From contig OZ244057.1 in assembly GCA_965215515.1 (NCBI GenBank), forward strand, positions 928,001-992,000: 64,000 nt of DNA. Direction: 5' to 3'. Position 1 is the first letter of the stretch; each line of letters starts with the position of its first letter. This document shows, piece after piece, positions 28,712 through 60,561 of this stretch. A program made the position numbers and the translations under genes. This DNA is from Oligoflexales bacterium (GTDB taxonomy: Bacteria; Bdellovibrionota_B; Oligoflexia; Oligoflexales; JAPPIL01). The notes under the pieces are model-generated. The model searched no databases. It was not told the origin of the DNA and worked only from the letters and a program-made list of their open reading frames with translations.

Positions 28712-31700
28712 ATGAAAAATGATGCTAAGCGATTGCTCTCCCTGTGGATGCTAGCACTCTGCCTCGCCTGCGGGGGAGATGATCTGGAGTCAGGCTCTAA
28801 GTTCATCAGCAAGACACAGCGAGATCGTGATGGGCATCCTAGCGGCAGCGATATCCACAGGTGTTATTATCGCGGCAACACAGTGGTCTGTGGCTTGCAT
28901 GGCAACGCCTATCTGATCAACAAAGTGCATGAAAAAGACCACCCCAACAGTTCTTCCGACGCACGCGACCCGCCTTACCTCGATATGACGGTCGAGGTGC
29001 AGGTCGGGTGGTGGGCGACTAAGCATGAAGATTGCGATAACCCTTGTATGACCGATGACAAAGTCACGGCGGGAGAATCTCCTGATCCTACCACATGCAC
29101 AAGCACTGACGAGGGGGCCGATCCCGCCAGCCCCGACGACGATACTGTAACTGAACATGACTGCACATGGCATTCCTGTCTGGGGGGAGTGAATGCCACC
29201 GAGGTGGTCAACGCGGCCATCGACAAGTGGCTCGCCCCACTGCGAACACCGTACAGCAGCACCGAGAACCCGATCATCAGTGGCGGTTATATCGACAACA
29301 CTGACCCCAAGGATGTGGCAGATCTGACAGTCAATTTTGCCTGCTCGCACTCTTCTCTTGCTTCAAAGATCCCCTGCCCGATCAGCTGCACGCGCTACCG
29401 AAATGCCTCCGGCGGCTACACCACTATCCCTAGCAGCGACGGTAGTTGCGACAAGGATAGCAGCGGAGCCTGCGCGCACAATCAGCCTGTCATCCAGCTC
29501 GGCGATGGCCGTTTACCCAAAGAGAATCACCGCGATACCTTGGGTGAGCACGACAAACTCAATTTGCTCCATGAGATCGGGCATGCCTTCGGCCTCGCCG
29601 ACACCCACGACGGAGGAGTAAGGATCGGCAAACAGCCGCGGGCGATCATGGCATGGGAGCGGATCGGGGAGCGGGGCAATAACGATTTGTTGCTCGGTAA
29701 AGACGACAAGGCAGGGGTGCAGTGGTTGTACGAGCACCATCGGCGCGGGCAACGCGAGCGTGACTGTCATTTCGACGAGTATGAGTACAACAGTAACACG
29801 GGACAGGAGGGTTGCGAGCCGCGCTATGTGTTGATCGTCACCCTGAAAAACCGCAACCACGGAGAGGCGGTGGTGATCATCGATACTGACCCTAACCTCG
29901 ACATCAACGAAGTCGAGGAGGAAACGGGCAACTCAGCCTTGCACTACGCCATCATCGAGCATGCTAATCCTATCAACACGGATGCGGATACGGCGGGCTA
30001 CCTGCTGGTCATTCAGGAATTGCTGGACTATGCAGGCATTAACCTTAACCTCAAGGATAAGACGACGGGCCGGACTCCTCTGCATCTGGCGGTACAGTTC
30101 AACCAGCAACGTATCGTCATTCTTCTTCTCGCCGCCGCGGGCATCTTGGTACAAACAGCAGATGACAAGCAGCAGACAGCCTTGCATTACGCCGCGAGCT
30201 TGGGTCACACGCATCTAATCAGTGCGATGCTGGCGAGTTTTGGCAGCCACGTAGAGGCACAGGACAGCGACGGCAAGACGGCGTTGCATCTGGCGGCAGC
30301 AAACGGACATGCCGACACCGTGAGTTTTTTCAGTGCCTACACGGGTGGCGGGATTGCTGCGCTAGCGGGGACGGAGGATAACGATGGCAACACGGCGTTA
30401 CATCTGGCGGCGGAAAATGGGCGCACGGATGTGGTGGCAGTGATTTTGCGCGCCGACCGCGGCAGGACGTTCTTAAACAGCACTAACGACCGTGATGAAA
30501 CCCCGCTGCATCTGGCGGCAAAGTTCGGTCGTGACGATGTGGTGGCGAGTTTGTTGCGACAGACAGATGTCGATATCAATCGGCAAGATGTCCAAGGCAA
30601 CACGCCTTTGCACCTCGCCGCACTGCATAACCGCCCTGCCGTCGTGCGTTTACTGCTCAACAAGAGCGGGATCGACACCACGATCAGCAACGGCAACGAC
30701 AAGACAGCACGTGACGAAGCGGTCAGTCACCGCCATACCGATGTTATCGACGTTTTCGATGGTGGCGATACCCTCTATGGCACGAGTTCTGCGGAACGGC
30801 TCATCCAGGCCTTGAAGGTAGGTAACATCGACCCAGACGAGTACTGCACCGCAGGCGATAGCGATTGCCGCCAGAAGTCGGCCTTAACGATTATGCGTAC
30901 CGATCAAAACCTCGATGTCAATTACACCGAGCCTAGCACAGGCAACACGGCACTGCACTACGCAGTACAGGGGGACGACCCTGTCGGCGCGGCCCGCGGC
31001 CCGTACGAGACGGTCGTCGATCTCCTCGTGCGCCGCACTTTGCTCAACCCCAACCTCAAGAACACCAACGGCGCGACCCCACTACATCTTGCCGTGCGGC
31101 ATGCAAAACTGGAAACGGTAAGGCTGTTGCTGGGCAATCGCCGCCTCGACGCTAATCTTACCAACAATGTCGGCGAAACTGCCCTACACATCGCTGTCGA
31201 TCTTGCCCATGAAAACATTCTCGCGGAGTTGCTGCGTTACCGTAGCGGCACAGTCGATGTCAATCTACAGGACGACACGGGACGTACACCGTTGCATATC
31301 GCTGCCGAGCAGCGCAATCCTGAGGTTGTTCAGATGTTGGTCGATGACCGCCGTGTCGATGTTAACCTCCGTACCCGCACCCACGACGAGACTGCCTTGC
31401 ACATTGCGGCTGAGTTCGACAACGACGAGGTTGTCGAGGTATTGCTGCGCGATGCTGACATCGATGTCAATCTACAGGATGCGACAGGTTCGACGGCCTT
31501 GCATAGCGCGGCTCATCACGGCAGTACGGCGGTGGTGACGCTGCTACTCGACGTGCCTAATATCGACCTGACTATTCTCGATAACCAGCAGCTCAGTGCT
31601 TATGGGCGCGCCGAAGCCAGCGGTTCGAATGATGTGGTGGAAATTTTTGACAACCTGGACAGGGGCGACGATGTTGTTTTCCGCGGCACGCTGATGGAGG

Positions 31701-33832
31701 AGTTGCGTGACAAGGGTAGCGGCGAAGATGTGGAAGATGTGGCTCTCGACATTCTCAATGACGACGAAGACGATCTCGACGTTAATGAAAGAGACCGTCG
31801 CAGTGGCAAGACTCCGCTGCATTATGCGGTCGAGTACGAGTATGCTCGTTTGCTTGCCGCTCTGTTGGCGCATCCTGACCTCCAGATTAATTTAAAAGAC
31901 GGGGAGGGCGAGACTGCTTTGCATCACGCGGTGCGTTTACAGCAGGCCAGCACGGTTACCGATTTGTTGCGGCATCGTGCTATCGAGGTCAATGCCACTG
32001 ATAGAGATGGCGATACTGCTCTGTTGCTCGCGGTGCGGGAGCAGGAACAGGCGATAGTTACCTTGCTAGCGCGGCATCGTGACATCGATGCGAACCGCAA
32101 AGACAGGGCGGGTGATACACCTCTGCTGCTGGCGGTGAAAAGCAAGAACGCTAATCTCGTGGGTATTTTGTTGCGTACTGCAGGCGTGGAGGTCAATTTG
32201 AAGGACGGTGATGGTGACGCTCCTCTGCACATCGCGATACGGGGCAGCGACACTCCTGTGGTGACACAGCTCGCCGCCGTCGCGGCCATCGAGGCCAACC
32301 ACAAAAACGCTGACGGCGACACGGCGCTGCACATTGCAGCTCGCAACAAAAAGAGCGGTCTGGTGCGCACCCTGCTGAGCATTGCGGGTATCGATGTCGA
32401 TGTGAAGGATCGCGGCAACAAGACTGCCCTTCATCTGGCGGTGGCTAAGCGCGATGCGGCTACGGTCACTCATCTGCTCGAGCATAGCAGTATTGACGTT
32501 AACGCGGTGGTAACGGGGGTTGAGGGTCGCACGGCGCTGCATCTCGCCATCGCGCAGCACATTGCGACCGACGAAGATTATAGTCGGGTCATCGATCTGT
32601 TGTTGGGGCATCTCGACATCGACGTTAACGTCAAGAACAGCCATCAGGAGAGTTTGCTGCTGCTGACGGTCAAGGAGGAGGAGACCGCGCTAATTACCAA
32701 ACTGTTGGCGCATGCGAACATCGAGGTTAACAGCAGCAACAGTCGGCAGAAAACTTCTTTGATGTTCGCGGCCGAGCGCGGCTCGCTTAACATTGTGCAT
32801 CAGTTGTTGGCGCATCGCGACATCGATGTCAATGTGCAGGACAACAAGCGTTTCACTGCTTTGCATTTTGCCGCGCATCACGGGCAGGTTGCTGTCGTGC
32901 GTGCGTTGCTGGCACATGCTGGTATCGACACTGCACTCAGAGACAGATGGAATTTAACTCCTCGCAAACGAGCGAAGGCTAGGGGACATACTGGGGTGGT
33001 GGCGGTGTTCGACGAGTATGAGGCAGGTAATGTCGGCAGTGCGGTAACTTTGTTGGCTGAGTTGGCGCGGGGCGATAGCGAGGAGAGTGTGCTGACTATT
33101 ATCGCGGCTAAGCGGGGCAACGTTGCCGTCAATGCTGTGGATGATAGCAATGCTTACACGGCACTGCACTATGCGGCGCGACGCGGTTATCTACGGGTAG
33201 TGAACGCTCTGTTGGATTACGACGCTATCGAGGTCAACGCAGCCAGTGCAGGGCTGGAGCGCCCCTTACATCTTGCCGCACGTGGGGGTCATGAGCGTGT
33301 TGTGCGTGCATTACTGGCGCACGGGAGGATTCAGATCAATGTCCGTGACAGTCGGGGGGTTACACCCTTGCATCGTGCGGTCGTCGGCGAGAATAATGCC
33401 CTGGTGCAGGCGTTGTTGGGGCATACGGGCATTCGTCCTACGCTCGCTACTAACAACGGCTACACGGCACTGCATTGGGCGGCGCAGCTCGGTTATGACG
33501 GTGTTGTGCGTCTCTTGCTCAACAAGCAGCCTCGGCTCATCAACATCAAGACGGTGCGGGGGCGCACGGCACTTTATTATGCCGCCTGGTTTGGGCACAC
33601 GTCCACTGTGCAGCAGCTGCTCAGGGAAACGGCTGTCAACGTGAATGCGCGCGACGAGGATGGCGATACTGCTTTGCATAAGGTCGCGGCGTACGATCGT
33701 CTTGCCGTCGCTCGTTTGTTGCTCGAGGCGGGAGCGAGCACGCAGATTAGCAATAAGAAGCGTGAGAGGGCGCGTGATATCGCGGAGGAGAGGGGATACG
33801 TGGAGATAGTGGCACTTATCGATAGTTATTGA
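28712..33832 (+). CDS. Large lipoprotein: metzincin-type metalloprotease domain plus about 34 ankyrin repeats
   Basis: Lipobox CLAC; HEIGHAFGLAD zinc motif with downstream AIM Met-turn; repeated G-x-T-[AP]-L-H-x-A units. Confidence 0.92.
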   Translation: MKNDAKRLLSLWMLALCLACGGDDLESGSKFISKTQRDRDGHPSGSDIHRCYYRGNTVVCGLHGNAYLINKVHEKDHPNSSSDARDPPYLDMTVEVQVGWWATKHEDCDNPCMTDDKVTAGESPDPTTCTSTDEGADPASPDDDTVTEHDCTWHSCLGGVNATEVVNAAIDKWLAPLRTPYSSTENPIISGGYIDNTDPKDVADLTVNFACSHSSLASKIPCPISCTRYRNASGGYTTIPSSDGSCDKDSSGACAHNQPVIQLGDGRLPKENHRDTLGEHDKLNLLHEIGHAFGLADTHDGGVRIGKQPRAIMAWERIGERGNNDLLLGKDDKAGVQWLYEHHRRGQRERDCHFDEYEYNSNTGQEGCEPRYVLIVTLKNRNHGEAVVIIDTDPNLDINEVEEETGNSALHYAIIEHANPINTDADTAGYLLVIQELLDYAGINLNLKDKTTGRTPLHLAVQFNQQRIVILLLAAAGILVQTADDKQQTALHYAASLGHTHLISAMLASFGSHVEAQDSDGKTALHLAAANGHADTVSFFSAYTGGGIAALAGTEDNDGNTALHLAAENGRTDVVAVILRADRGRTFLNSTNDRDETPLHLAAKFGRDDVVASLLRQTDVDINRQDVQGNTPLHLAALHNRPAVVRLLLNKSGIDTTISNGNDKTARDEAVSHRHTDVIDVFDGGDTLYGTSSAERLIQALKVGNIDPDEYCTAGDSDCRQKSALTIMRTDQNLDVNYTEPSTGNTALHYAVQGDDPVGAARGPYETVVDLLVRRTLLNPNLKNTNGATPLHLAVRHAKLETVRLLLGNRRLDANLTNNVGETALHIAVDLAHENILAELLRYRSGTVDVNLQDDTGRTPLHIAAEQRNPEVVQMLVDDRRVDVNLRTRTHDETALHIAAEFDNDEVVEVLLRDADIDVNLQDATGSTALHSAAHHGSTAVVTLLLDVPNIDLTILDNQQLSAYGRAEASGSNDVVEIFDNLDRGDDVVFRGTLMEELRDKGSGEDVEDVALDILNDDEDDLDVNERDRRSGKTPLHYAVEYEYARLLAALLAHPDLQINLKDGEGETALHHAVRLQQASTVTDLLRHRAIEVNATDRDGDTALLLAVREQEQAIVTLLARHRDIDANRKDRAGDTPLLLAVKSKNANLVGILLRTAGVEVNLKDGDGDAPLHIAIRGSDTPVVTQLAAVAAIEANHKNADGDTALHIAARNKKSGLVRTLLSIAGIDVDVKDRGNKTALHLAVAKRDAATVTHLLEHSSIDVNAVVTGVEGRTALHLAIAQHIATDEDYSRVIDLLLGHLDIDVNVKNSHQESLLLLTVKEEETALITKLLAHANIEVNSSNSRQKTSLMFAAERGSLNIVHQLLAHRDIDVNVQDNKRFTALHFAAHHGQVAVVRALLAHAGIDTALRDRWNLTPRKRAKARGHTGVVAVFDEYEAGNVGSAVTLLAELARGDSEESVLTIIAAKRGNVAVNAVDDSNAYTALHYAARRGYLRVVNALLDYDAIEVNAASAGLERPLHLAARGGHERVVRALLAHGRIQINVRDSRGVTPLHRAVVGENNALVQALLGHTGIRPTLATNNGYTALHWAAQLGYDGVVRLLLNKQPRLINIKTVRGRTALYYAAWFGHTSTVQQLLRETAVNVNARDEDGDTALHKVAAYDRLAVARLLLEAGASTQISNKKRERARDIAEERGYVEIVALIDSY

Positions 33833-36641: not shown

Positions 36642-36794
36642 TCACTCTTCTTTTTTCAGTTCACCCCAGGTGGTAGTTTGTTTGTCTTTTGCCACGACAG
36701 GCATAGCTTTGGGATGGGCGGCGATGAGTGCGGCGATGCGTGCCAGACCGAGCTGGCGGGCGAGGTCTAGTGCGCTGTGCCCGTCTATACCGCA
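36642..36794 (-). pseudogene. 3' fragment of an ankyrin-repeat gene carrying the C-terminal TTTWGELK motif
   Basis: Manual translation CGIDGHSALDLARQLGLARIAALIAAHPKAMPVVAKDKQTTTWGELKKEE*; in-frame stop immediately upstream, no start. Confidence 0.7.
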
Positions 36795-37116: not shown

Positions 37117-38811
37117 TCAGCCAGATATTGTCTTTCTTGCAATATATTTATTGTGAATGTGTTCTATATGGTATGGGGCGTTCTTTGCGATCGGTTCGTT
37201 AAGATCTACCGTTACGTCGTAGAATTCTGCCGATGCCTGGTGTCCCGCATCACGATATATCGCCGCTAACGTCTTCCTGGTTTTTTCGTCAGTGCTGTCG
37301 AGAAAGAATGCCAAGCGCAGTTTTTTAAAAGCTTCTGTTTCGTTGCTCGCCAGTAACTTTTGTGCCTCTCTTCGTAATTTCGTTGCTTCTTTACTAAAGT
37401 CAAAGAGACTCTCTCCATCATAGAGCTTCTCGCTACTGCTAAGCAGTGCAGTCCTTTGAGTAGAGTCAAGCTCGTGAAAGCCTGCGTCACGCAACCTTGC
37501 GGCAACCCGCAGCATTTTGTAGTGATTGAGCACCCCCGCGCCATCGACCTGGCTGGTACTGTGGATGCTCGTGCGGGTAGCAGTTTTTTGCAGCATGATA
37601 ACCGCTTCATCCCGACTCAGATCTGGAAGGATACTCATGGTGTCGGCAAGCGCACCAGTGACCATCGGGGTTGCTCCACTCGTACCACCGAAGCGAGTAA
37701 GCGTACCTCCTATCTCAGACACTTGGAAAGTATCAGCAGGTGCAAGCACGATTACTTTTTCCGATACTTGCGAAAATTCGCTAGGAAAACCCCCAGGATC
37801 AGCACTGCCTACCGTGATAATTTCGTCTCCGAGATTAGCAATTATCTTATCATCACCAGAGAGTGGAAAGTCATTGCCGACACCCTTAATGAAAATAGTT
37901 TTACGAAGACCGACCTCTTCCTTTGCTTTAGCAATATCTTCCAACCCCACTCCAAGTCCCCCCAGCGATACGTTGACGAGATCGGGTTCTACTGCGAGGC
38001 TATTTTCCGAAAATGTTGTTTCCTCCCGTAATGAAAAAATATCAGATCCTCGGTTATCAGCTCGCACATGAGTTACTTTTCCCCTGGAAGACACTCCCAC
38101 AGGAGCTTCCCCCAATATAATACCAAGTACCTTCGCAGCATGATTGTCATTGCCATTATTTCGAAAATAGTTATCCATTATGTCCGACCAGTTACTATCG
38201 ACAGACAGATCGTCGTGCATTCTTGAACGCATTGTTTCACTCATCACACTAGGAGGCGTAAAGCCTCCGTCTATGATGGCTATATTAGAATCAACCAAGT
38301 CAAGTTTCTTTCCTATCTTCTCCATCAGCATTCTTGCCTCAGGTGTTCCAGTTGCTTCTTGTGCCCAAAAAACGTTAAGCCGCGAAGAAAACTTCGGTAA
38401 TCCCAAGTTATGCGGAGGACGCAGTCCTAGTCTGGCGATACTTCGCTCATAAGTGTATCTATCTTCATACTCAATTATGCCGTAGTCCTTGCTGTACAGG
38501 TTCAGTATTTTTTCACGGTCAAGACTTTGTACTACACCTTCACCTTTTCCTACAGTTTTTCCAGCCTTCCCTAGTGCCTCTTTTTCTCGTGCCGCTTTTT
38601 CTAGTGCTTCTTCCAGTGCCTTGTTTTTGGCGGCTTTACGTTTACCGATAACCACCGCCGTCACCGCTACCACAACCGTTGCGACAATCAGCGCGACGGA
38701 CTTCCAGCGGGCGCGCTGATCTTCCTCCGCTTCACTGTCCGCAGCAAAACCTGGAGTAACCGATAACGACACCGTGAGAATAACTGCAATTAGCCTCTTA
38801 CAAAGCACCAT
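37117..38811 (-). CDS. S8 subtilase-family serine peptidase with signal+TM leader
   Basis: IIDGGF (Asp), NHAAKVLGII (His), GND (oxyanion Asn), GGTSGATP (Ser); AAGGAGG RBS; AT-richer than flanks. Confidence 0.88.
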   Translation of the reverse strand: MVLCKRLIAVILTVSLSVTPGFAADSEAEEDQRARWKSVALIVATVVVAVTAVVIGKRKAAKNKALEEALEKAAREKEALGKAGKTVGKGEGVVQSLDREKILNLYSKDYGIIEYEDRYTYERSIARLGLRPPHNLGLPKFSSRLNVFWAQEATGTPEARMLMEKIGKKLDLVDSNIAIIDGGFTPPSVMSETMRSRMHDDLSVDSNWSDIMDNYFRNNGNDNHAAKVLGIILGEAPVGVSSRGKVTHVRADNRGSDIFSLREETTFSENSLAVEPDLVNVSLGGLGVGLEDIAKAKEEVGLRKTIFIKGVGNDFPLSGDDKIIANLGDEIITVGSADPGGFPSEFSQVSEKVIVLAPADTFQVSEIGGTLTRFGGTSGATPMVTGALADTMSILPDLSRDEAVIMLQKTATRTSIHSTSQVDGAGVLNHYKMLRVAARLRDAGFHELDSTQRTALLSSSEKLYDGESLFDFSKEATKLRREAQKLLASNETEAFKKLRLAFFLDSTDEKTRKTLAAIYRDAGHQASAEFYDVTVDLNEPIAKNAPYHIEHIHNKYIARKTISG

Positions 38812-39517: not shown

Positions 39518-41314
39518 TTAGGGGTGAAGCTGCTTTGCTGCGTCTACGTAACTGCGAATATATAGGTGCAGTCCTTCTACCATATTAGTAGCTAGCTGCG
39601 GGTCGAAAAGTGGGTGAAAGATCGCTTCGAGTTGTGCCGTTGTGATGCTGTCTAAACGAGCAATAAAATCAGCATCGGTGTAAAATGCTTTACTATTTTC
39701 ACGCAACTCCTCAAAGTGCCGACCATACAGGCCTTGGTCGACACGGGGATAATCAAAAGCTTGTTCTGAGTCAATACTTATAAGTCTTCCGGCAATAGGA
39801 TTAATCTTATTATCGTAGTAACCAGATCGGTCGCGGTCCCCTGTCAATAAAAAGAAAGTCCTGTTTCTGGTCGTAATGTGGTGGGTTTCAGAGGAGATGT
39901 CTTTGCCAATCAGTTCGAGATAACTCTTGTATTGTTTGTGGAAGTCGTCACCCATACCGTTGATGAACAACTGCACTGCTCCTTTGTAATTACCTATCTT
40001 TAGTGGCACCGTGATAGGGAAAACATGCAGGCCCAGCAACTGGTCTAATCTGTATGCTGCAATTTCCCGTTGTGGCCAAGCAACAAGACGTTCTTCTGGT
40101 GAGTGAGTACTTTTATATACTCCCTTCAAACCACTGCTGAATTCAAGCAACAGAGGTTTAGTAAATCCTCCAGGCAAGGTATCTTTGCTAATTATTTTAT
40201 CGTTCATCAGCACATCTTCTATTATTTTTTTCATCGCCGTAGCTTCAGAGGTGAACCCACGCTCAGCTAATTTCCAGATAACTTCCTGTAGATTACCGAG
40301 TTTTACCAAAGCAGTTAACTCGCTGTTGATCGTTGTGCTGTTAATGATTGTAGATATTTTCTCAGCCAGCTCAGGAGCATATTTCACTTCAGGCAGACCG
40401 TCAGTTAAATTCTTGGTGACATCGTATATGTTGTGCCAATATTCAAGAGAGTGCTTATGCTCATCCTCAAGTTTATGTATAGCTGAGTACTTTGGATATT
40501 TTTTGTCAAAATCAGTGTTGATTTTACGAATATGATCTTCGCGAATTTGCCACTCACTATGATGATACAGTCCCTTTATCTTATCAATTTGTGCGTCTCG
40601 CTGTGTGATTGCCGTTGCTATTTCTTCAGATGAGTGGGAGTCAGGATATTGCTGGTGGATTGCTGCTAATTTTTTGGCTTTTTCAATTTCTAAAGCCGCT
40701 ACCCTTCCCTCGTAGATACCACGTAAATCTGCGACACTCATTTTTTTGCCATCTTGCGCTTCTAGTTGTAAAGCCTTACCGTGTTCAATAGTTGAGGTAT
40801 GTTTTCTGACCAGCGCCGCGGTGTACTCTTTGGCTTCGCGTATTTTTTCAGCCTTACGTGCCGCTTCCTCCAGCGCAAGTGCTTCTTTTTTACGTGCCGC
40901 TTCCTCCAGCGCAAGTGCTTCCTTTTCTTCAGCTATGCGTATTTTTTCAGCCTTACGTGCCGCTTCCTCCAGCGCAAGTGCTTCTTTTTTACGTGCCGCT
41001 TCCTCCAGCGCAAGTGCTTCCTTTTCTTCAGCTATGCGTATTTTTTCAGCCCTACGTGCCGCTTTTTCTAGTGCTTCTTTTTCTCGTGCCGCTTTTTCTA
41101 GTGCTTCTTTCAGTAACTTACTCTTAGCGGCTTTACGTTTACCGATAACCACCGCCGTCACCGCTACCACAACCGTTGCGACAATCAGTGCAACGGACTT
41201 CAAGGGGGCGCGTGGATCTTCCTCTGCTTCACTGTCCGCAGCAAAACCTGGAGTAACCGATAACGACACCGTAAGGACAAATACAATTAGCTTGGTCATG
41301 ATCTGCCTTCCCAT
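39518..41314 (-). CDS. Protein with signal+TM leader, coiled-coil repeats and C-terminal PI3/PI4-kinase-like atypical kinase domain
   Basis: GVYK, REIAAYRLDQLLGL, GAVQLF, DRDR...N and ISIDSEQAF kinase-like motifs. Confidence 0.75.
   Translation of the reverse strand: MGRQIMTKLIVFVLTVSLSVTPGFAADSEAEEDPRAPLKSVALIVATVVVAVTAVVIGKRKAAKSKLLKEALEKAAREKEALEKAARRAEKIRIAEEKEALALEEAARKKEALALEEAARKAEKIRIAEEKEALALEEAARKKEALALEEAARKAEKIREAKEYTAALVRKHTSTIEHGKALQLEAQDGKKMSVADLRGIYEGRVAALEIEKAKKLAAIHQQYPDSHSSEEIATAITQRDAQIDKIKGLYHHSEWQIREDHIRKINTDFDKKYPKYSAIHKLEDEHKHSLEYWHNIYDVTKNLTDGLPEVKYAPELAEKISTIINSTTINSELTALVKLGNLQEVIWKLAERGFTSEATAMKKIIEDVLMNDKIISKDTLPGGFTKPLLLEFSSGLKGVYKSTHSPEERLVAWPQREIAAYRLDQLLGLHVFPITVPLKIGNYKGAVQLFINGMGDDFHKQYKSYLELIGKDISSETHHITTRNRTFFLLTGDRDRSGYYDNKINPIAGRLISIDSEQAFDYPRVDQGLYGRHFEELRENSKAFYTDADFIARLDSITTAQLEAIFHPLFDPQLATNMVEGLHLYIRSYVDAAKQLHP
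40838..41062. repeat. Tandem 99-bp coding repeat (2 identical copies plus a partial one, with 36-bp subrepeats)
   Basis: Units start at 40838, 40937 and 41036; each encodes IAEEKEALALEEAARKKEALALEEAARKAEKIR. Confidence 0.92.
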
Positions 41315-49298: not shown

Positions 49299-50459
49299 GT
49301 GGCGACCGCAGTGCGCACGTCAGATGGTTATCTTGCTATACCTTTGGCTACGGGCGTGGGAGAGAAGGACTGCCAGCTGCTGCAATTGCTAAACGCTGAG
49401 TTCGCTCCCGCCGACATGTCGGTCTCCGTGCACGCAGGCAGTGCTACGCTGCGGTTGCGAGCCATCGACATCGGTAGACTGCGGCAGGCGGTCGCCGAAT
49501 TGTCCGCGCAAGCGGAGAGCGGGGTACTCGCCGCGCTGCTCGCTGCGGTCGAGAACATCAAGAGCTATGGCATGCGGGCAGGCAAACGTTATTTCGTCAA
49601 CTACGCCGACGAACGCAAAGTCGTGCACCGCGGTGCCAAAGAACTGCGGCGCGGCAAGCATTACTACGCCAACGATCATGCTTACGCGGGAAACAACCGC
49701 CGTCCGCCGCATCACCTTATCGACAAAATCATCACCGCCGACGCGGCAGAAGTACTCCCCGACTTGCCCGACAACTGTGTCGATTTGGTCTTTACTTCTC
49801 CCCCCTACAACTTTGGTTTGGACTACAGCAAAAGCGACGACGACATGCGCTGGGAAGAGTATTTTCAAAAACTCTTCGCTATCTTTGATGAATGTATCAG
49901 AGTGTTGAAATTCGGCGGGCGGATCGTGGTCAATGTACAACCGCTGTTTTCCGACTATATTCCCAGCCACCACATTATCAGTTCTTTTTTTATGCGGCGG
50001 CGTTTAATTTGGAAGGGCGAATTACTGTGGGAAAAGAACAACTACAACTGCAAGTACACCGCGTGGGGAAGTTGGAAAAGCCCCGCCAGTCCCTACCTGA
50101 AGTACACGTGGGAGTTTGTGGAGATATTCGCCAAAGGCTCTTTGCGGAGCGACGGCAGCAAAGACGATGCGGATATCAGTGCTGAGGAGTTCAAGCGCTG
50201 GGTCAATGCCAAGTGGAGCATCGCCCCTGAGCGTAACATGCAGGACTACGGTCATCCCGCGATGTTTCCCGAAGAGCTCGCGACGCGAGTGCTCAAGCTT
50301 TTTAGTTTTGCCCACAGTTTTGTTCTCGATCCTTTCGTCGGTGTCGGCACTACGGCGGTGGCGGCACGAAAACTACAGCGCCACTATCTCGGCATCGACA
50401 TCTCGCCGCAATACTGTCGCACAGCCACCGCCCGACTTCAGGGGCGACTGACTAAATAG
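49299..50459 (+). CDS. Site-specific DNA methyltransferase (N4/N6, beta class)
   Basis: TSPPY precedes HPAMFP and DPFVGVGTT; about 140-aa N-terminal extension. Confidence 0.92.
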   Translation: MATAVRTSDGYLAIPLATGVGEKDCQLLQLLNAEFAPADMSVSVHAGSATLRLRAIDIGRLRQAVAELSAQAESGVLAALLAAVENIKSYGMRAGKRYFVNYADERKVVHRGAKELRRGKHYYANDHAYAGNNRRPPHHLIDKIITADAAEVLPDLPDNCVDLVFTSPPYNFGLDYSKSDDDMRWEEYFQKLFAIFDECIRVLKFGGRIVVNVQPLFSDYIPSHHIISSFFMRRRLIWKGELLWEKNNYNCKYTAWGSWKSPASPYLKYTWEFVEIFAKGSLRSDGSKDDADISAEEFKRWVNAKWSIAPERNMQDYGHPAMFPEELATRVLKLFSFAHSFVLDPFVGVGTTAVAARKLQRHYLGIDISPQYCRTATARLQGRLTK

Positions 50460-52162
50460 CGCAAACTTTGCAGCAGCAGGGTGCGATCGTGCACCAGCAC
50501 TTCTCGGTAGGGATTTTGTAGTAGTTGGAAAACTTCTTCTTGCTGCGTGCTGATTTCTGCCAGTTTTTCCAACACGATCTCCTGTTCGGCAAGTTTTAGT
50601 GAACTCAGCAGGACGACAGCCCCACTGCCAAGAATAACGACGGCGGGGATGCCCGTGCGCAGGGTGCGGCTGAGCAGGCGCGTGCGTCCCAGCTTAACGA
50701 ACAGCCCGTTCCAAGCTTCCACTATTTTGCTCGCTGTCTCGCCTAAGATCCCCACAGGGCGGCTATCGAATATTTTTTGCAACAATCCCCGTCGTGCTCG
50801 CCAGATTTTACGCCCTCCGCTCCCCTCCCTGATCCCACGTCCTCCCTCGTTAACGAGGTGGGTGTCGAAGTCGAACCCGTCCCAGCGTGAGGGGGGGATT
50901 ACGGCGGTGCGGGAAAATCTCCCCACGGCGTGTTTCAAGGTCGCGGGGGCGGAAGTAGCGGTCGCGACGATTGCCGCGGCCAGTAGGCTGGTACGCTGTC
51001 CTGCTGCTTCCTCTCGCAAAGTGTGTTCCTCATCGTGCAGTCGTTTACGATTGCTCTCGATCAGAGCGAGAGGGAAGTAGCGTCCGCCGAGCAAGTCCTC
51101 ACACACCGAGCTGGCGACAGAACAGAGACGAAACCTCGCCACCCGCTCGTCGTCACGTTGCACGTACTCAGCTTGTAAACGCAGCTCTTCTTCGCCACGC
51201 AGCCCCGCGGTGACCTCGCCCTGCCCCAGCAGCAGATCGCGCCGCGCCAGAGCTACATACTCGGCCAGCAGGCGTTCGTCACGCGTGCCGAGGGGCAAGA
51301 ATTTAAGCCCTATCCGCCGTCCCCAAGTGCGGAGATAGGCCGCACCCAGACCTGCGCGCAGGCTGTGGTTGTGCCGACTGGGGAGGGCGATGATGATGCC
51401 GCGCTGCTGATGGGCGTATTCCTCGCCGTATTCGGCTCTGCTCATGCCAAAACCGAGTGCCCAATCTCTGTGGCGGCTCTTGGTGTAGGTGAAGGGGCCG
51501 CCGAGATAGTTCATGCGGTAACGATAGTTGCCCCACCGCCAGGTAAACAATGCCCCCGCACCGTAGCCAGCCTCTGCTTCCAGTGCGGTCTGTAGCCAGT
51601 GACGACCATTGTTCGCATAGCAGTATTCCACTGCAATGTCGCCTCCGAAGGCGGCGACCAAGCCCAGCCCCAATCGTCCCGCGACGCTGTAGCAAGTGGT
51701 GGTCGGCTTAACGAAACGGTACAGCAGGGTGCGTACCCGATCGCCGTGTGCGCTGGTATAAGCGGTGATGAAACGTGCTTGTGCGTGGCGCGCAACTTGT
51801 TCTCGTGCCGTGTCACGCCGATAGGCTTGGCAACGCTGTAGCTGTGCTGCGGCCGCGAGAGGTGTGTTGAAGTTGAGGGGTGCGAGGATTTCCGCCGCCA
51901 CCCGCGTGCCAGCCAGTCCTCCCACCTGCCGCTCGACCAGTGCCCGCACACAATCGAGCACGAGAACGTACACGTGCTCCTCGCGCATCTGTGTCTCTGC
52001 CTCGCCCTGCCACAAACTCGCCGCTGCCAGCTGCAACTCCCGCACATCGTCGGTGCCGAACAGCACCCGCAGGTCATCGCTGACCTGCACCTGGTGTTCA
52101 TCAGCCTCAGCCGCACCCGCTCCCGTCACCAGCAACAGCAATAACACCGACCGCAACCTCAT
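50438..52162 (-). CDS. Secreted hypothetical protein
   Basis: 574-aa ORF, signal peptide, Gly/aromatic beta-rich middle, C-terminal hydrophobic segment. Confidence 0.65.
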   Translation of the reverse strand: MRLRSVLLLLLVTGAGAAEADEHQVQVSDDLRVLFGTDDVRELQLAAASLWQGEAETQMREEHVYVLVLDCVRALVERQVGGLAGTRVAAEILAPLNFNTPLAAAAQLQRCQAYRRDTAREQVARHAQARFITAYTSAHGDRVRTLLYRFVKPTTTCYSVAGRLGLGLVAAFGGDIAVEYCYANNGRHWLQTALEAEAGYGAGALFTWRWGNYRYRMNYLGGPFTYTKSRHRDWALGFGMSRAEYGEEYAHQQRGIIIALPSRHNHSLRAGLGAAYLRTWGRRIGLKFLPLGTRDERLLAEYVALARRDLLLGQGEVTAGLRGEEELRLQAEYVQRDDERVARFRLCSVASSVCEDLLGGRYFPLALIESNRKRLHDEEHTLREEAAGQRTSLLAAAIVATATSAPATLKHAVGRFSRTAVIPPSRWDGFDFDTHLVNEGGRGIREGSGGRKIWRARRGLLQKIFDSRPVGILGETASKIVEAWNGLFVKLGRTRLLSRTLRTGIPAVVILGSGAVVLLSSLKLAEQEIVLEKLAEISTQQEEVFQLLQNPYREVLVHDRTLLLQSLRYLVSRP

Positions 52163-58593: not shown

Positions 58594-58639
58594 TGTCAGA
58601 AGTATAGATGGCAACAGAAACAGCTGAGGGAGATGCAGA

Positions 58640-59557
58640 ATGAAAATTTTGAGCCTGCTACTCGCATTAACCCTGTCGGCACAATCCCAGGGACAAACAC
58701 AACAACTCGCACGGCAACATCTGCCTCCCTGGAGCAAAAAACTGATAAGTGTCGCCATCGCCAGTGGCCTACTGCTATCATCACCAGTGATGGCACAGGA
58801 ACTACCGCTGAACGCTCAGTTCACCACAACCACCCGCGCCGAACACCTGTCCGTGCTCAACCTCATGTTTATCTCCAACGGAAGACAACGCTCGGGCTAC
58901 TTCGCTTATGTCGGACAAGACCCACAGAATCGCGCCCTCCTCCTCGGCTTGCGACTCAGTGTCACCATCATTCCCTTCGTCGAGGCTGAACTGGTTATCA
59001 ACGCTGACGGAGCAGAGACACTGATCTTCAACCACGAAGGTCTCGCCCTGCGCACCGCAGCAGTGGAGGAAAAACAAGCGTTCCTGCGCCCCGATGTCGA
59101 GCTGGCGAGACTCTACGATATGACCCTGCTCGCCCTAGACGGACTCACGACACAAGACTACCATGCCGTGCAAGTGGGGGCTTTTCCGCCCACAACAACA
59201 CCGCTAGACATCGTCGTCTATCGCACCGACCTACTGCTAGATCCTGGTAAAGACGTGGACTGGGTGGCAGTATACAGCAACGCACCGCTCGCACAAGAAA
59301 AGTGCGTGGCTACCAGCTTCACGCCAGAGCTGTGGTCGGCAAACGGCAACTGTACTACGGGTAGATTTGCTGTGTCGACAACCGCACCGATCTTCACCGC
59401 CGACGACGGCGAACTGGTCGCTTTTGCCTTCTCCGCTACAGAGATGATAGTCATCCCTCCAGAAGTACAAACATACGTGCAAGAAGCACTCGCCATCAAC
59501 TCTACCCAGAAACTCTCCACCACCTGGGGAGCGATCAAGAAAAGAGGAGCACACTGA
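58640..59557 (+). CDS. Secreted hypothetical protein, degenerate trypsin-like fold, C-terminal KLSTTWGAIK
   Basis: Two successive signal-like segments; paralogous to the next gene (GQD, LLxxxGLT, VQxxxFP, C...C, IF). Confidence 0.75.
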   Translation: MKILSLLLALTLSAQSQGQTQQLARQHLPPWSKKLISVAIASGLLLSSPVMAQELPLNAQFTTTTRAEHLSVLNLMFISNGRQRSGYFAYVGQDPQNRALLLGLRLSVTIIPFVEAELVINADGAETLIFNHEGLALRTAAVEEKQAFLRPDVELARLYDMTLLALDGLTTQDYHAVQVGAFPPTTTPLDIVVYRTDLLLDPGKDVDWVAVYSNAPLAQEKCVATSFTPELWSANGNCTTGRFAVSTTAPIFTADDGELVAFAFSATEMIVIPPEVQTYVQEALAINSTQKLSTTWGAIKKRGAH

Positions 59558-60561
59558 TGCGCTGGCTGTTGATATTGACAATTCTAGGGAGCGGAACACA
59601 AACGACACAGGCACGCAACTTGGAGATGTGGCGTAGCAGCTGGCGACAAGTAACCGCTGGTGCAGCACTCATGCTCGCCCTGCCACTGTCCAGCACGGCC
59701 GTGTGGGCACAGAATAGGGGAGGAGAAAATGCCCCTGACAGACAACAAAGCCCCCTGCCAAGAGAAACACGTTGGCACAAAGTTTTTGCAAGATCACCCG
59801 CCGAGTTTCGCTCCGTGATGAACTTGCAAATGGTCACCCCCCACAGCCGTCGCCTAGTCGGACACCTGATCTACCTGGGACAGGATCGTAACGATGAGGC
59901 CATGTTCATCACCATGCACAGCTCCCCCACACTCTACGCACCAGCGAACGGAGAGACCGAGCAAAATACTCTCTACTACATACTACAGGACTGGGACGGG
60001 ACGGTATGGGAAGATGTTAGCCTCGAACTCATCCACCTCTTCCCCACTACCGCACTCGATTTCTACGGTCTCTCGCTGCTCAAAATCACAGGACTCACAC
60101 AGCACGAACTTACCCCCGTGCAACTGGCAGGATTTCCCTACCAAACATCACCACTGAACCAACTCGGTTACTTCGCTGACGACGCTGCATCCTCGCCCGA
60201 ACTGGCCGCAGCCAACGCCGAGCACGACGACAACGCCATCGCTCACGCGGAACTGTCTCTCTACTGGCAACGCTGTCAAGCAGGCACGTTCGATCACGAA
60301 ACACAACTGGGAACAAACACCTGCGCCTCCTTCCCTACCTCCACGACACAAGGAGAAGCCATTTTCAATGCGCTGACACTGAAAGCCGTCGGCTTCTACC
60401 TGATCAAAGCTGCCCCAGATCCTACCCATGTCGTTGTTCACAAACGTATGGTGCTGGGCTTCGCACCCGCAGTACGTGCTCAAGTAGAGGCACTGGTGAG
60501 CGTCAGCCCCCGCCACAAACTGCCGCTTACCTGGGGAACACTAAAAGATACACAACAGTAA
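59557..60561 (+). CDS. Secreted hypothetical protein, degenerate trypsin-like fold, C-terminal KLPLTWGTLK
   Basis: TGATG coupling to the upstream paralog; GAGGAG RBS; same architecture. Confidence 0.75.
   Translation: MRWLLILTILGSGTQTTQARNLEMWRSSWRQVTAGAALMLALPLSSTAVWAQNRGGENAPDRQQSPLPRETRWHKVFARSPAEFRSVMNLQMVTPHSRRLVGHLIYLGQDRNDEAMFITMHSSPTLYAPANGETEQNTLYYILQDWDGTVWEDVSLELIHLFPTTALDFYGLSLLKITGLTQHELTPVQLAGFPYQTSPLNQLGYFADDAASSPELAAANAEHDDNAIAHAELSLYWQRCQAGTFDHETQLGTNTCASFPTSTTQGEAIFNALTLKAVGFYLIKAAPDPTHVVVHKRMVLGFAPAVRAQVEALVSVSPRHKLPLTWGTLKDTQQ

Follow-up and report, generated by a model that had tools for sequence, protein, structure and literature searches.

In extended signal peptide region (ESPR) leaders the N-terminal extension, a 25-residue motif conserved among type V proteins, has no signal activity alone (PMC8151025; PMC2805444). 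The thylakoid-lumen presequences of chromalveolate algae join a signal peptide, a transit peptide and a second signal ending in A-X-A (PMC7056318), and the Vibrio cholerae protein VgrG3 is described in a preprint as re-exported to the periplasm from the recipient cytoplasm (bioRxiv 10.1101/2021.05.11.443660), work that also stands as a reference entry in PMC10240207. Here we analyze a locus in the window, by which we mean the whole 64,000-nucleotide stretch of DNA from an Oligoflexales bacterium (G000:C1:928001-992000, within the 2.18-Mb single-contig source genome, labeled G000), where two adjacent open reading frames (ORFs), A and B, each begin with two signal-like segments in tandem. We conclude that this double leader is real, conserved, lineage-specific and portable, and that its type is new relative to the literature searched; its mechanism may be serial targeting from cell to cell or an unusual form of extended leader. 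That literature, with subscription journals and supplements outside its scope, held no description of natural tandem bacterial signal peptides, of the trypsin-fold family to which A and B belong, or of the C-terminal TWG tail in which they end. To our knowledge natural bacterial proteins are assumed to bear one export signal, and predictors report the first only; a double-leader class is therefore invisible in annotation.

Tandem signals at the N-termini of ORFs A and B

ORF A (58640..59557, 305 aa, on the + strand, as are all features of A and B given below) comprises the double leader, then a trypsin-fold domain, then the TWG tail, and its paralogue ORF B (59557..60561, 334 aa; 27% identity over 259 columns, E 2e-15) has an identical architecture. 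Scores are from our own n/h/c-region scorer, not SignalP, a heuristic whose weights were hand-set from general knowledge after the sequences had been seen. In A, signal 1 (58640..58693, residues 1-18, score 12.6) is Leu-rich with a short n-region and would be cleaved after residue 16 or 18, its c-region being shortened or eroded compared with the orthologues, where signal 1 ends in a clear x-x-Ala site. The basic spacer (58694..58741, residues 19-34, net +3, zero acid residues) ends in Trp-Ser-Lys-Lys, which forms the n-region of signal 2, and the h-/c-region of signal 2 (58742..58795, residues 35-52, score 15.7) has Pro at -4 and a predicted site between Ala52 and Gln53. In B, signal 1 (59557..59613, residues 1-19, score 9.8) ends in a Thr-Gln-Ala site before Arg (Ala-Gln-Ala before Arg in the orthologues of B), the basic spacer (59614..59649, residues 20-31, net +2) includes an ATG at codon 24 with a weak Shine-Dalgarno (SD) match, and signal 2 (59650..59709, residues 32-51, score 16.0) ends in Val-Trp-Ala before Gln. 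Each second segment outscores the first signal of its own protein.

The SD-like GAGGGAG of ORF A (58626..58632) lies 7 nt upstream of its ATG, with GGAGG at the equivalent position in orthologous loci, and the ATG of ORF B, which overlaps the TGA stop of ORF A (TGATG) in an SD-led operon, follows its own AGGAG (59545..59549) by 7 nt. An annotation artefact, with the true start just ahead of segment 2 and segment 1 untranslated or a chance match, is largely refuted, and we give it a very small residual probability. ATG24 of ORF B would indeed yield a neat single signal, and some start codon lies within 15 residues ahead of segment 2 in 18 of 28 double-leader genes (the set defined below); but TTG22 and the in-frame ATG24 in the spacer of ORF B each have a mere 3-base SD match, and codons 5-49 of ORF A contain zero ATG, GTG or TTG, so that ORF A cannot start directly ahead of segment 2. 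Of the 28 genes, 24 have an SD of at least 4 bases ahead of the first start and one has such an SD ahead of a start near segment 2, and at the protein level segment 1 is kept in all 26 of the 26 family members. On these three grounds (start codons of ORF A, SD placement, conservation of segment 1) a start before segment 2 was ruled out, and translation is taken to begin before signal 1. The 2.3-kb stretch spanning A and B shows no letter difference in contigs from three of four sequencing runs, which may themselves be source data for the assembly.

Conservation of both signals

Homologue searches with ORF A returned 5 proteins, A included, when word-indexed and 29 when unfiltered. Our alignment A1 has 26 rows (A, B, 4 close homologues and 20 of the 29 search matches) and omits 2 matches that are truncated proteins and 7 short ones (129-238 aa). 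The rows are 21-64% identical to A and each has two hydrophobic segments; both signals pass our scorer in 26 of 26, with a spacer net charge of +1 to +8, and in each segment scorer and shuffle test find a basic n-region, an uncharged h-region and small residues at -3/-1. For the peptidase-site shuffle test on these 26 proteins, h-regions were placed by hydrophobicity alone. A strict [AVS]-x-Ala site stands behind signal 1 in 15 of 26 (9.0 in shuffles, p 0.01) and behind signal 2 likewise in 15 of 26 (7.5 in shuffles, p 0.0015); with a looser pattern signal 2 gives 25 against 17.6 (p 0.001). From this pattern, the predicted peptidase sites after both signals are kept by selection. Tat signals were ruled out, the twin-arginine motif S/T-R-R-x-F occurring in 0 of 26 within the first 90 residues and a plain RR in 4 of 26.

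A family profile matches 4 of the 95 genomes of the order, all from one family, with 3 to 17 matches apiece. The double leader is visible by eye in 27 of the 32 matching ORFs of these four genomes, and the other 5 have no intact N-terminus. Several family copies in genome G002 (L348, L350, L355) are stop-interrupted or lack the N-terminus, which suggests rapid turnover there. The sequence-only reading had proposed tandem signal-like segments on both paralogs, and this proposal is confirmed with our scorer for A and B and throughout the 26 aligned proteins: the start codon stands ahead of signal 1, the second segment has a signal-like score and a conserved peptidase site, and the layout is kept in homologs.

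Frequency of the double leader in genomes

Signal-bearing proteins without later membrane segments were screened for a second signal within 90 residues at thresholds of at least 9 or at least 12. In G000 the lower threshold was reached by 15 of 358 signal-bearing proteins and the higher by 7 of 358, compared with 5 of 300 and 0 of 300 in control windows further downstream in signal-bearing proteins of the same genome. In two genomes of other families (first 400 kb each) there was one second signal among 82 proteins, on a channel-like membrane protein, and none among 116, together 1 of 198. A second signal occurs in 17 of 96 proteins from 400 kb of G002, a sample of 20 regions of which 14 were chosen around known matches or at will, while the 6 contiguous unselected ones held zero. 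Four of the 15 G000 proteins were dropped by eye (2 signal plus stop-transfer, 1 wrong start, 1 non-signal), and the remaining 11 form, with the 17 from G002, the statistics set of 28. The scorer misses at least 5 further double-leader proteins of G000 (at 686068, 793655, 1955501, 2077945 and 2079577).

Anatomy of the leader

In the set of 28, signal 1 is Leu/Val-rich and signal 2 Ala/Thr/Ser-rich, with 25% Ala and 20% Leu in signal 2 compared with 10% and 32% in signal 1; nine of the 28 second signals are of lipoprotein type. On the dG hydrophobicity scale of Hessa et al., signal 2 is the weaker in windows of 10 and 12 residues, with a median of -0.31 compared with -1.82 in signal 1, -1.64 in the single signals of G000 and -1.38 in signals of other families. 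The spacer, 11-51 residues long, is basic in 28 of 28 (net +1 to +9, 4% acid residues), and its helical hydrophobic moment of 0.63 compares with 0.45 and 0.40 for ordinary mature N-termini; the chain behind signal 2 is neutral or acidic. Among single-signal proteins a basic mature N-terminus (+3 or more) is found in 44 of 223 in G000 as compared with 8 of 110 in controls, and the G000 cases include ordinary periplasmic proteins, so that the Sec system of this bacterium may tolerate some charge behind a signal.

Cargo of the leader

Signal 1, basic amphipathic spacer and signal 2 together are a portable leader, confined to one bacterial family and carried on envelope-type cargo: the trypsin fold, Peripla_BP_6, Peptidase_S66 and lipoproteins of no known family. 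A LivJ-type binding protein (the Peripla_BP_6 cargo) has signal 1, spacer and a lipobox signal in 4 of 4 genomes of the family, and one copy, in G000, has a spacer that repeats have lengthened to about 190 residues. At 13 loci of other families the protein has two signals in none, and 2 of the 13, among the 3 closest, are plain lipoproteins whose lone signal corresponds to signal 2; signal 1 and the spacer would thus have been added ahead of a working signal. The G000 copies are two tandem lipoprotein genes (L035, G000:C1:2077945-2081346) whose spacers hold variable 8- and 16-residue repeats, and no transporter genes of their own type adjoin them.

The LD-carboxypeptidase (Peptidase_S66) has no leader at 12 of 12 other-family loci. 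G000 encodes one leaderless and one double-leader copy, G001 has a double-leader copy, and the three copies of G002 are leaderless, double-leader, and provided with signal 1 and the basic spacer only; the double leader would thus have been gained by a duplicate of a leaderless enzyme. Extra Hsp70 copies in 4 of 4 family genomes likewise bear signal 1 with x-x-Ala and a basic spacer and no second signal, the ordinary DnaK being leaderless, and a similar layout is seen in G000 on an ankyrin-Clp protein and in G001 on a Clp-family ATPase. Single signals are present on the bacterium's own BamA, Skp, FKBP, GspD, AapJ and the LivJ of an ABC operon, all of them identified by sequence motifs.

A separate stop-transfer class combines a signal and charged linker with a strong Val/Ile helix and basic residues, unlike signal 2. 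Two ORFs in the window (37117-38811 and 39518-41299, both on the - strand), one of them a subtilase, have a signal, an acidic linker, a strong hydrophobic helix and a basic cluster, a design also seen on an Hsp70 copy in G001 and G002. A second double-leader set (L017, L020, L022, L143), mostly with a lipobox, has similar small beta-rich domains of no known family. The cargo at 503515 and 1014438 of G000 is presumed to be an outer-membrane barrel from its sequence pattern (terminal Phe, alternating strands); a single-sequence model of one presumed barrel cargo reached a predicted local distance difference test score (pLDDT) of 36.6.

The TWG tail

The tail occupies 59498..59554 in ORF A, where Trp296 and Lys300 are invariant across the family, and 60499..60558 in ORF B. 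Since Trp and Lys are invariant, the tail is, as judged from the alignment, under selection in the trypsin-fold family. Thirteen ORFs of G000 end in it, 3 of the trypsin-fold family, 9 HExxH-ankyrin proteins, which have a single lipoprotein-type signal, and 1 fragment; this 50-codon fragment with terminal tail (36642-36794, - strand, in the window) is the remnant of an HExxH-ankyrin gene. Stretches of 400 kb from G015 and from G017 showed no tail. Searching for homologues of the tail alone gave 2 proteins, and the ESM Atlas gave no usable match for tail or leader. Among the matches listed in a metagenome pattern scan (80 loci), 65 ORFs hold the motif, terminal in 64; of these proteins 47 are complete, 44 of the 47 are signal-bearing and 0 of the 44 have a second signal. 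Again among the matches listed, the 23 tail proteins scanned mostly have LamG or other sugar-binding folds, and one tail protein is a 36% homologue of the HExxH-ankyrin family of G000. A TTWG tail is attributed to Poribacteria-type exported proteins.

Pairing of the leader with the C-terminal tag, as the sequence-only reading expected, thus holds within the trypsin-fold family and breaks down elsewhere. Counted genome-wide in G000, the tail ends 3 of the 11 double-leader proteins (8 of 17 in the sampled 400 kb of G002) and the double leader heads 3 of the 13 tail ORFs. A single coupled system of leader and tail was ruled out by this co-occurrence together with the 0 of 44 among the listed metagenome proteins, and the tail is probably a module independent of the leader, and imported.

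Two HExxH lipoproteins of G000 (G000:C1:1486522-1488225 and 1564826-1566505; also L327) instead end in a type IX-type C-terminal domain, by a TIGR04183 profile match over cut-off. G000 also encodes at least 11 giant type IV pilin-like proteins of 580-1200 aa with near-identical N-termini (genes at G000:C1 99406, 240190, 413498, 1038329, 1488309, 1566471, 1602853, 1861250, 1871414, 1915798 and 1947569), most of which adjoin an HExxH-ankyrin lipoprotein gene; the set looks like a variable adhesin repertoire.

The mature domain

The mature domain of A (58796..59497) is predicted to have a chymotrypsin/trypsin-like fold, nearest to Spl/V8 glutamyl endopeptidases. Its structure model (pLDDT 83.6) shows the two-barrel chymotrypsin fold, with Spl/V8 proteases as nearest structures (Foldseek E 3e-8; Z 18.5, root-mean-square deviation 2.6, 184 residues aligned), and the structurally aligned part starts at residues 52-60, directly behind the Ala52-Gln53 site. 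Neither Pfam nor NCBIfam gives a family name for ORF A or ORF B; Trypsin_2 (Pfam) matches 2 of 26 family members weakly (best E 0.0013). The catalytic Ser of G-x-S-G-S-P aligns with Ile in the family profile, in a weak alignment to SplB (E 0.06), and this position varies in the family between Ile, Leu, Val, Thr and Gln. No conserved His is found in the region of the catalytic His; Arg105, 90% conserved, presumably falls at its place, going by the Spl motif. An active protease is improbable with the catalytic Ser replaced, and given the Ile at this position the mature domains of A and B are probably non-catalytic binding proteins. One Cys pair is conserved in the family, as expected of exported proteins.

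Genomic setting and secretion machines

ORFs A and B sit between rimO and queG, with a gyrase gene also nearby, on a bacterial chromosome, and the order rimO-A-B recurs in G002. A genome-collection scan with ORF A gave a single weak locus of unrelated appearance. Elsewhere in the window lie a signal-bearing 574-aa ORF without Pfam family and with a hydrophobic segment near its C-terminus (50438-52162, - strand) and a lipoprotein-like ORF of 1706 aa, one stretch of which resembles the HExxH family (28712-33832, + strand).

Three secretins, along with ATPases of the type II, type IV pilus and Tad kinds, are encoded in G000, which also has one LepB-family gene and two Lgt-family genes, the second of which is divergent (L162, G000:C1:1431315-1432160). 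A signal-bearing protein (L029, G000:C1:691302-691988) is weakly similar to the GspC-like gene upstream of the type II secretin. ATP/ADP translocase was found in 0 of 4 genomes of the family and matched strongly in two other genomes of the order (G024 and G013; L067, L068), from another family with several full-length translocases.

Competing explanations

One pass through one membrane cannot normally use both cuttable signals, since signal 2 faces the wrong way once signal 1 has exited. In the reading we tentatively prefer, whose chance we put a little below even, the proteins would be exported by the cell's own Sec, transferred into another bacterium and re-exported by the recipient's Sec. 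The own Sec would read signal 1 and LepB would cleave it; the Ala-rich, weakly hydrophobic signal 2 would pass the membrane unanchored; and the spacer, now N-terminal, would serve as a transit element that takes the protein out of the cell (of the machines found, through type II secretion or through type IV or Tad pili) and into another diderm bacterium's cytoplasm. There signal 2 would be read by the recipient's Sec, and the cargo would mature in periplasm or membranes through the recipient's signal peptidase I or Lgt/LspA; the lipoprotein-type second signals point to a bacterial reader. The Hsp70 copies and Clp ATPases, which have signal 1 and spacer but lack signal 2, would remain in the recipient cytoplasm, where ATP is. 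The final place of A and B, as binding proteins with a non-catalytic trypsin fold, would be the recipient envelope, where the TWG tail, typical of another lineage's exported proteins, could dock them. Serial export of this kind is favored by the conservation of the site behind signal 1, by the weakness of signal 2 in its h-region, by a spacer free to vary in length, by the lone signals that the bacterium's own envelope proteins carry and by the none/one/two-signal series on peptidase and chaperone copies. The two-step targeting into another cell that the sequence-only reading proposed thus stands as the leading account, the three observations it named as fatal (a start behind signal 1, a segment 2 without signal character, homologs without the layout) having gone the other way. 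A more elaborate version, which we consider rather doubtful, is a modular code for delivery into another bacterium, possibly of the TTWG-tail lineage: signal 1 plus spacer would address the cytoplasm, signal 2 the periplasm or membranes by way of the recipient's Sec, Lgt and Bam, and the TWG tail, as the recipient's own sorting label, would add docking.

Several points count against serial export. We infer the processing, the secretion and the recipient. Basic residues right after a signal hinder Sec export in E. coli, and the first 18 residues behind signal 1 carry net +2 or more in 23 of 28. The positive-inside rule (PMC9360617) would keep the spacer in the cytoplasm. With windows of 15 or 19 residues the hydrophobicity of signal 2 does not differ from that of other-family signals (p 0.36 and 0.91); the loose site pattern behind signal 1 (26 of 26 against 23.6, p 0.07) is not significant, and kinship among the family members makes the p values overstate. 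An injection machine was not identified, a FlhA/SctV-family match being absent and type VI and type IV effector systems not having been searched for. A cargo already folded in the first periplasm would have to be unfolded before it could go through Sec again, and the more obvious home for an amino-acid binding lipoprotein is the envelope of the cell that makes it.

The main rival, a possible account that we nonetheless doubt, is one extended leader read a single time by the own Sec, with signal 2 as the working signal, cut by the own LepB or LspA, for which one LepB-family and two Lgt-family genes are present. Signal 1 would target or tether the precursor while the spacer stays cytoplasmic, the extension would slow or route export as in ESPR leaders, and signal 1 plus spacer alone would tether the Hsp70 and Clp copies to the inner membrane face. 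This account requires no unidentified machine and fits the positive-inside charge pattern (basic ahead of signal 2, neutral or acidic behind), the same basic residues directly behind site 1, and the ancestral standing of signal 2 in the LivJ-type binding protein. It also has the ESPR precedent, where the C-terminal part suffices for export and the N-part is often basic and amphipathic (PMC8151025; PMC2805444), although an ESPR cannot by itself serve as a signal (PMC8151025). Signal 1, moreover, keeps a polar c-region and Ala at -1 across proteins 21-64% identical, which an uncut tether would not need; the spacer is anywhere between 11 and 51 residues long, and about 190 at the extreme; housekeeping envelope proteins lack the extended leader; and the triplication of a cytoplasmic peptidoglycan-recycling enzyme with none, one and two signals is left unexplained.

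We consider it improbable that signal 1 is the sole true signal and that spacer and segment 2 form a periplasmic pro-region, anchored in the membrane or read by an own secretion machine and later removed by another protease. Signal 1 does look canonical, and a basic amphipathic helix followed by a hydrophobic stretch can bind membranes; yet the end of segment 2 is either a signal-peptidase-I site, with Pro between -4 and -6, or a lipobox Cys that has its homologue in a normal lipoprotein signal, the true stop-transfer anchors of this lineage are of the different, Val/Ile-rich kind with basic residues behind, and with stop-transfer the domains that have disulfide bonds, and those of binding proteins, would remain cytoplasmic. 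Less probable still is serial targeting in which the second reader is a eukaryotic host organelle (mitochondrial or plastid bipartite import) or an extra membrane of the bacterium itself. The spacer, basic, amphipathic and acid-poor, resembles organellar transit peptides, and signal-bearing ankyrin-repeat proteins are abundant; but lipobox-type second signals require Lgt, the substrate of LD-carboxypeptidase is peptidoglycan fragments, the family genomes hold no ATP/ADP translocase, and an extra own membrane should affect BamA and other envelope proteins too.

Under any of these accounts, an undescribed leader type has been attached by a whole bacterial family to unrelated proteins, and the LD-carboxypeptidase copies with none, one and two signals are an internal experiment made ready by nature. 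If two-step targeting is true, it shows a way for a host-dependent or predatory bacterium to equip both envelope and cytoplasm of a different bacterium, bears on how relatives of Bdellovibrio get enzymes past the prey inner membrane, and supplies a testable transit peptide. The modular code, if true, would be a bacterial counterpart of organelle protein import, between species.

Comparison with known systems

ESPR leaders (PF13018, N1-H1-N2-H2-C, 'NtraC') are likewise long, with two charged and two hydrophobic parts, their C-terminal part likewise looks like a complete signal, and the part between is often basic and amphipathic (PMC8151025; PMC2805444). The present leader's C-terminal part resembles a canonical signal as in ESPR leaders, a resemblance that we draw from our own scorer. 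In contrast to them, the first part here is a predicted full signal with peptidase site, a conserved 25-residue motif is lacking and the spacer ranges from 11 to about 190 residues. PF13018 had no match in A or B (E 0.1), in the 26 family members (E 1) or in the other double-leader proteins, and no autotransporter or TpsA family matched among the double-leader cargo, which are not type V passengers.

Fold and tail have relatives of their own. With Spl/V8 proteases and degenerate trypsin folds (the Umb1 umbrella particle chains) the mature domain shares a fold (Z 17-18.5), but identity is 7-18% and the catalytic Ser is replaced here. The TTWG tail attributed to Poribacteria-type exported proteins shares the motif; there, however, it stands behind a single signal (44 of 47 complete proteins signal-bearing and 0 of 44 double, among the matches listed).

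VgrG3 is likewise a foreign protein that reaches the target periplasm by way of the target cytoplasm, but it has no Sec signal and is injected from the donor by a type VI system, whereas here two canonical N-terminal signals would serve; the primary paper on its re-export is reportedly that of Ho et al. 2017. The algal tripartite presequence has the same order of signal, basic transit segment and second signal. Those presequences are eukaryotic, nucleus-encoded and read by endoplasmic reticulum and plastid translocons, while the present leader is bacterial, its spacer is shorter and its second signal can be a lipobox; the likeness would accordingly be an analogy of design and not homology.

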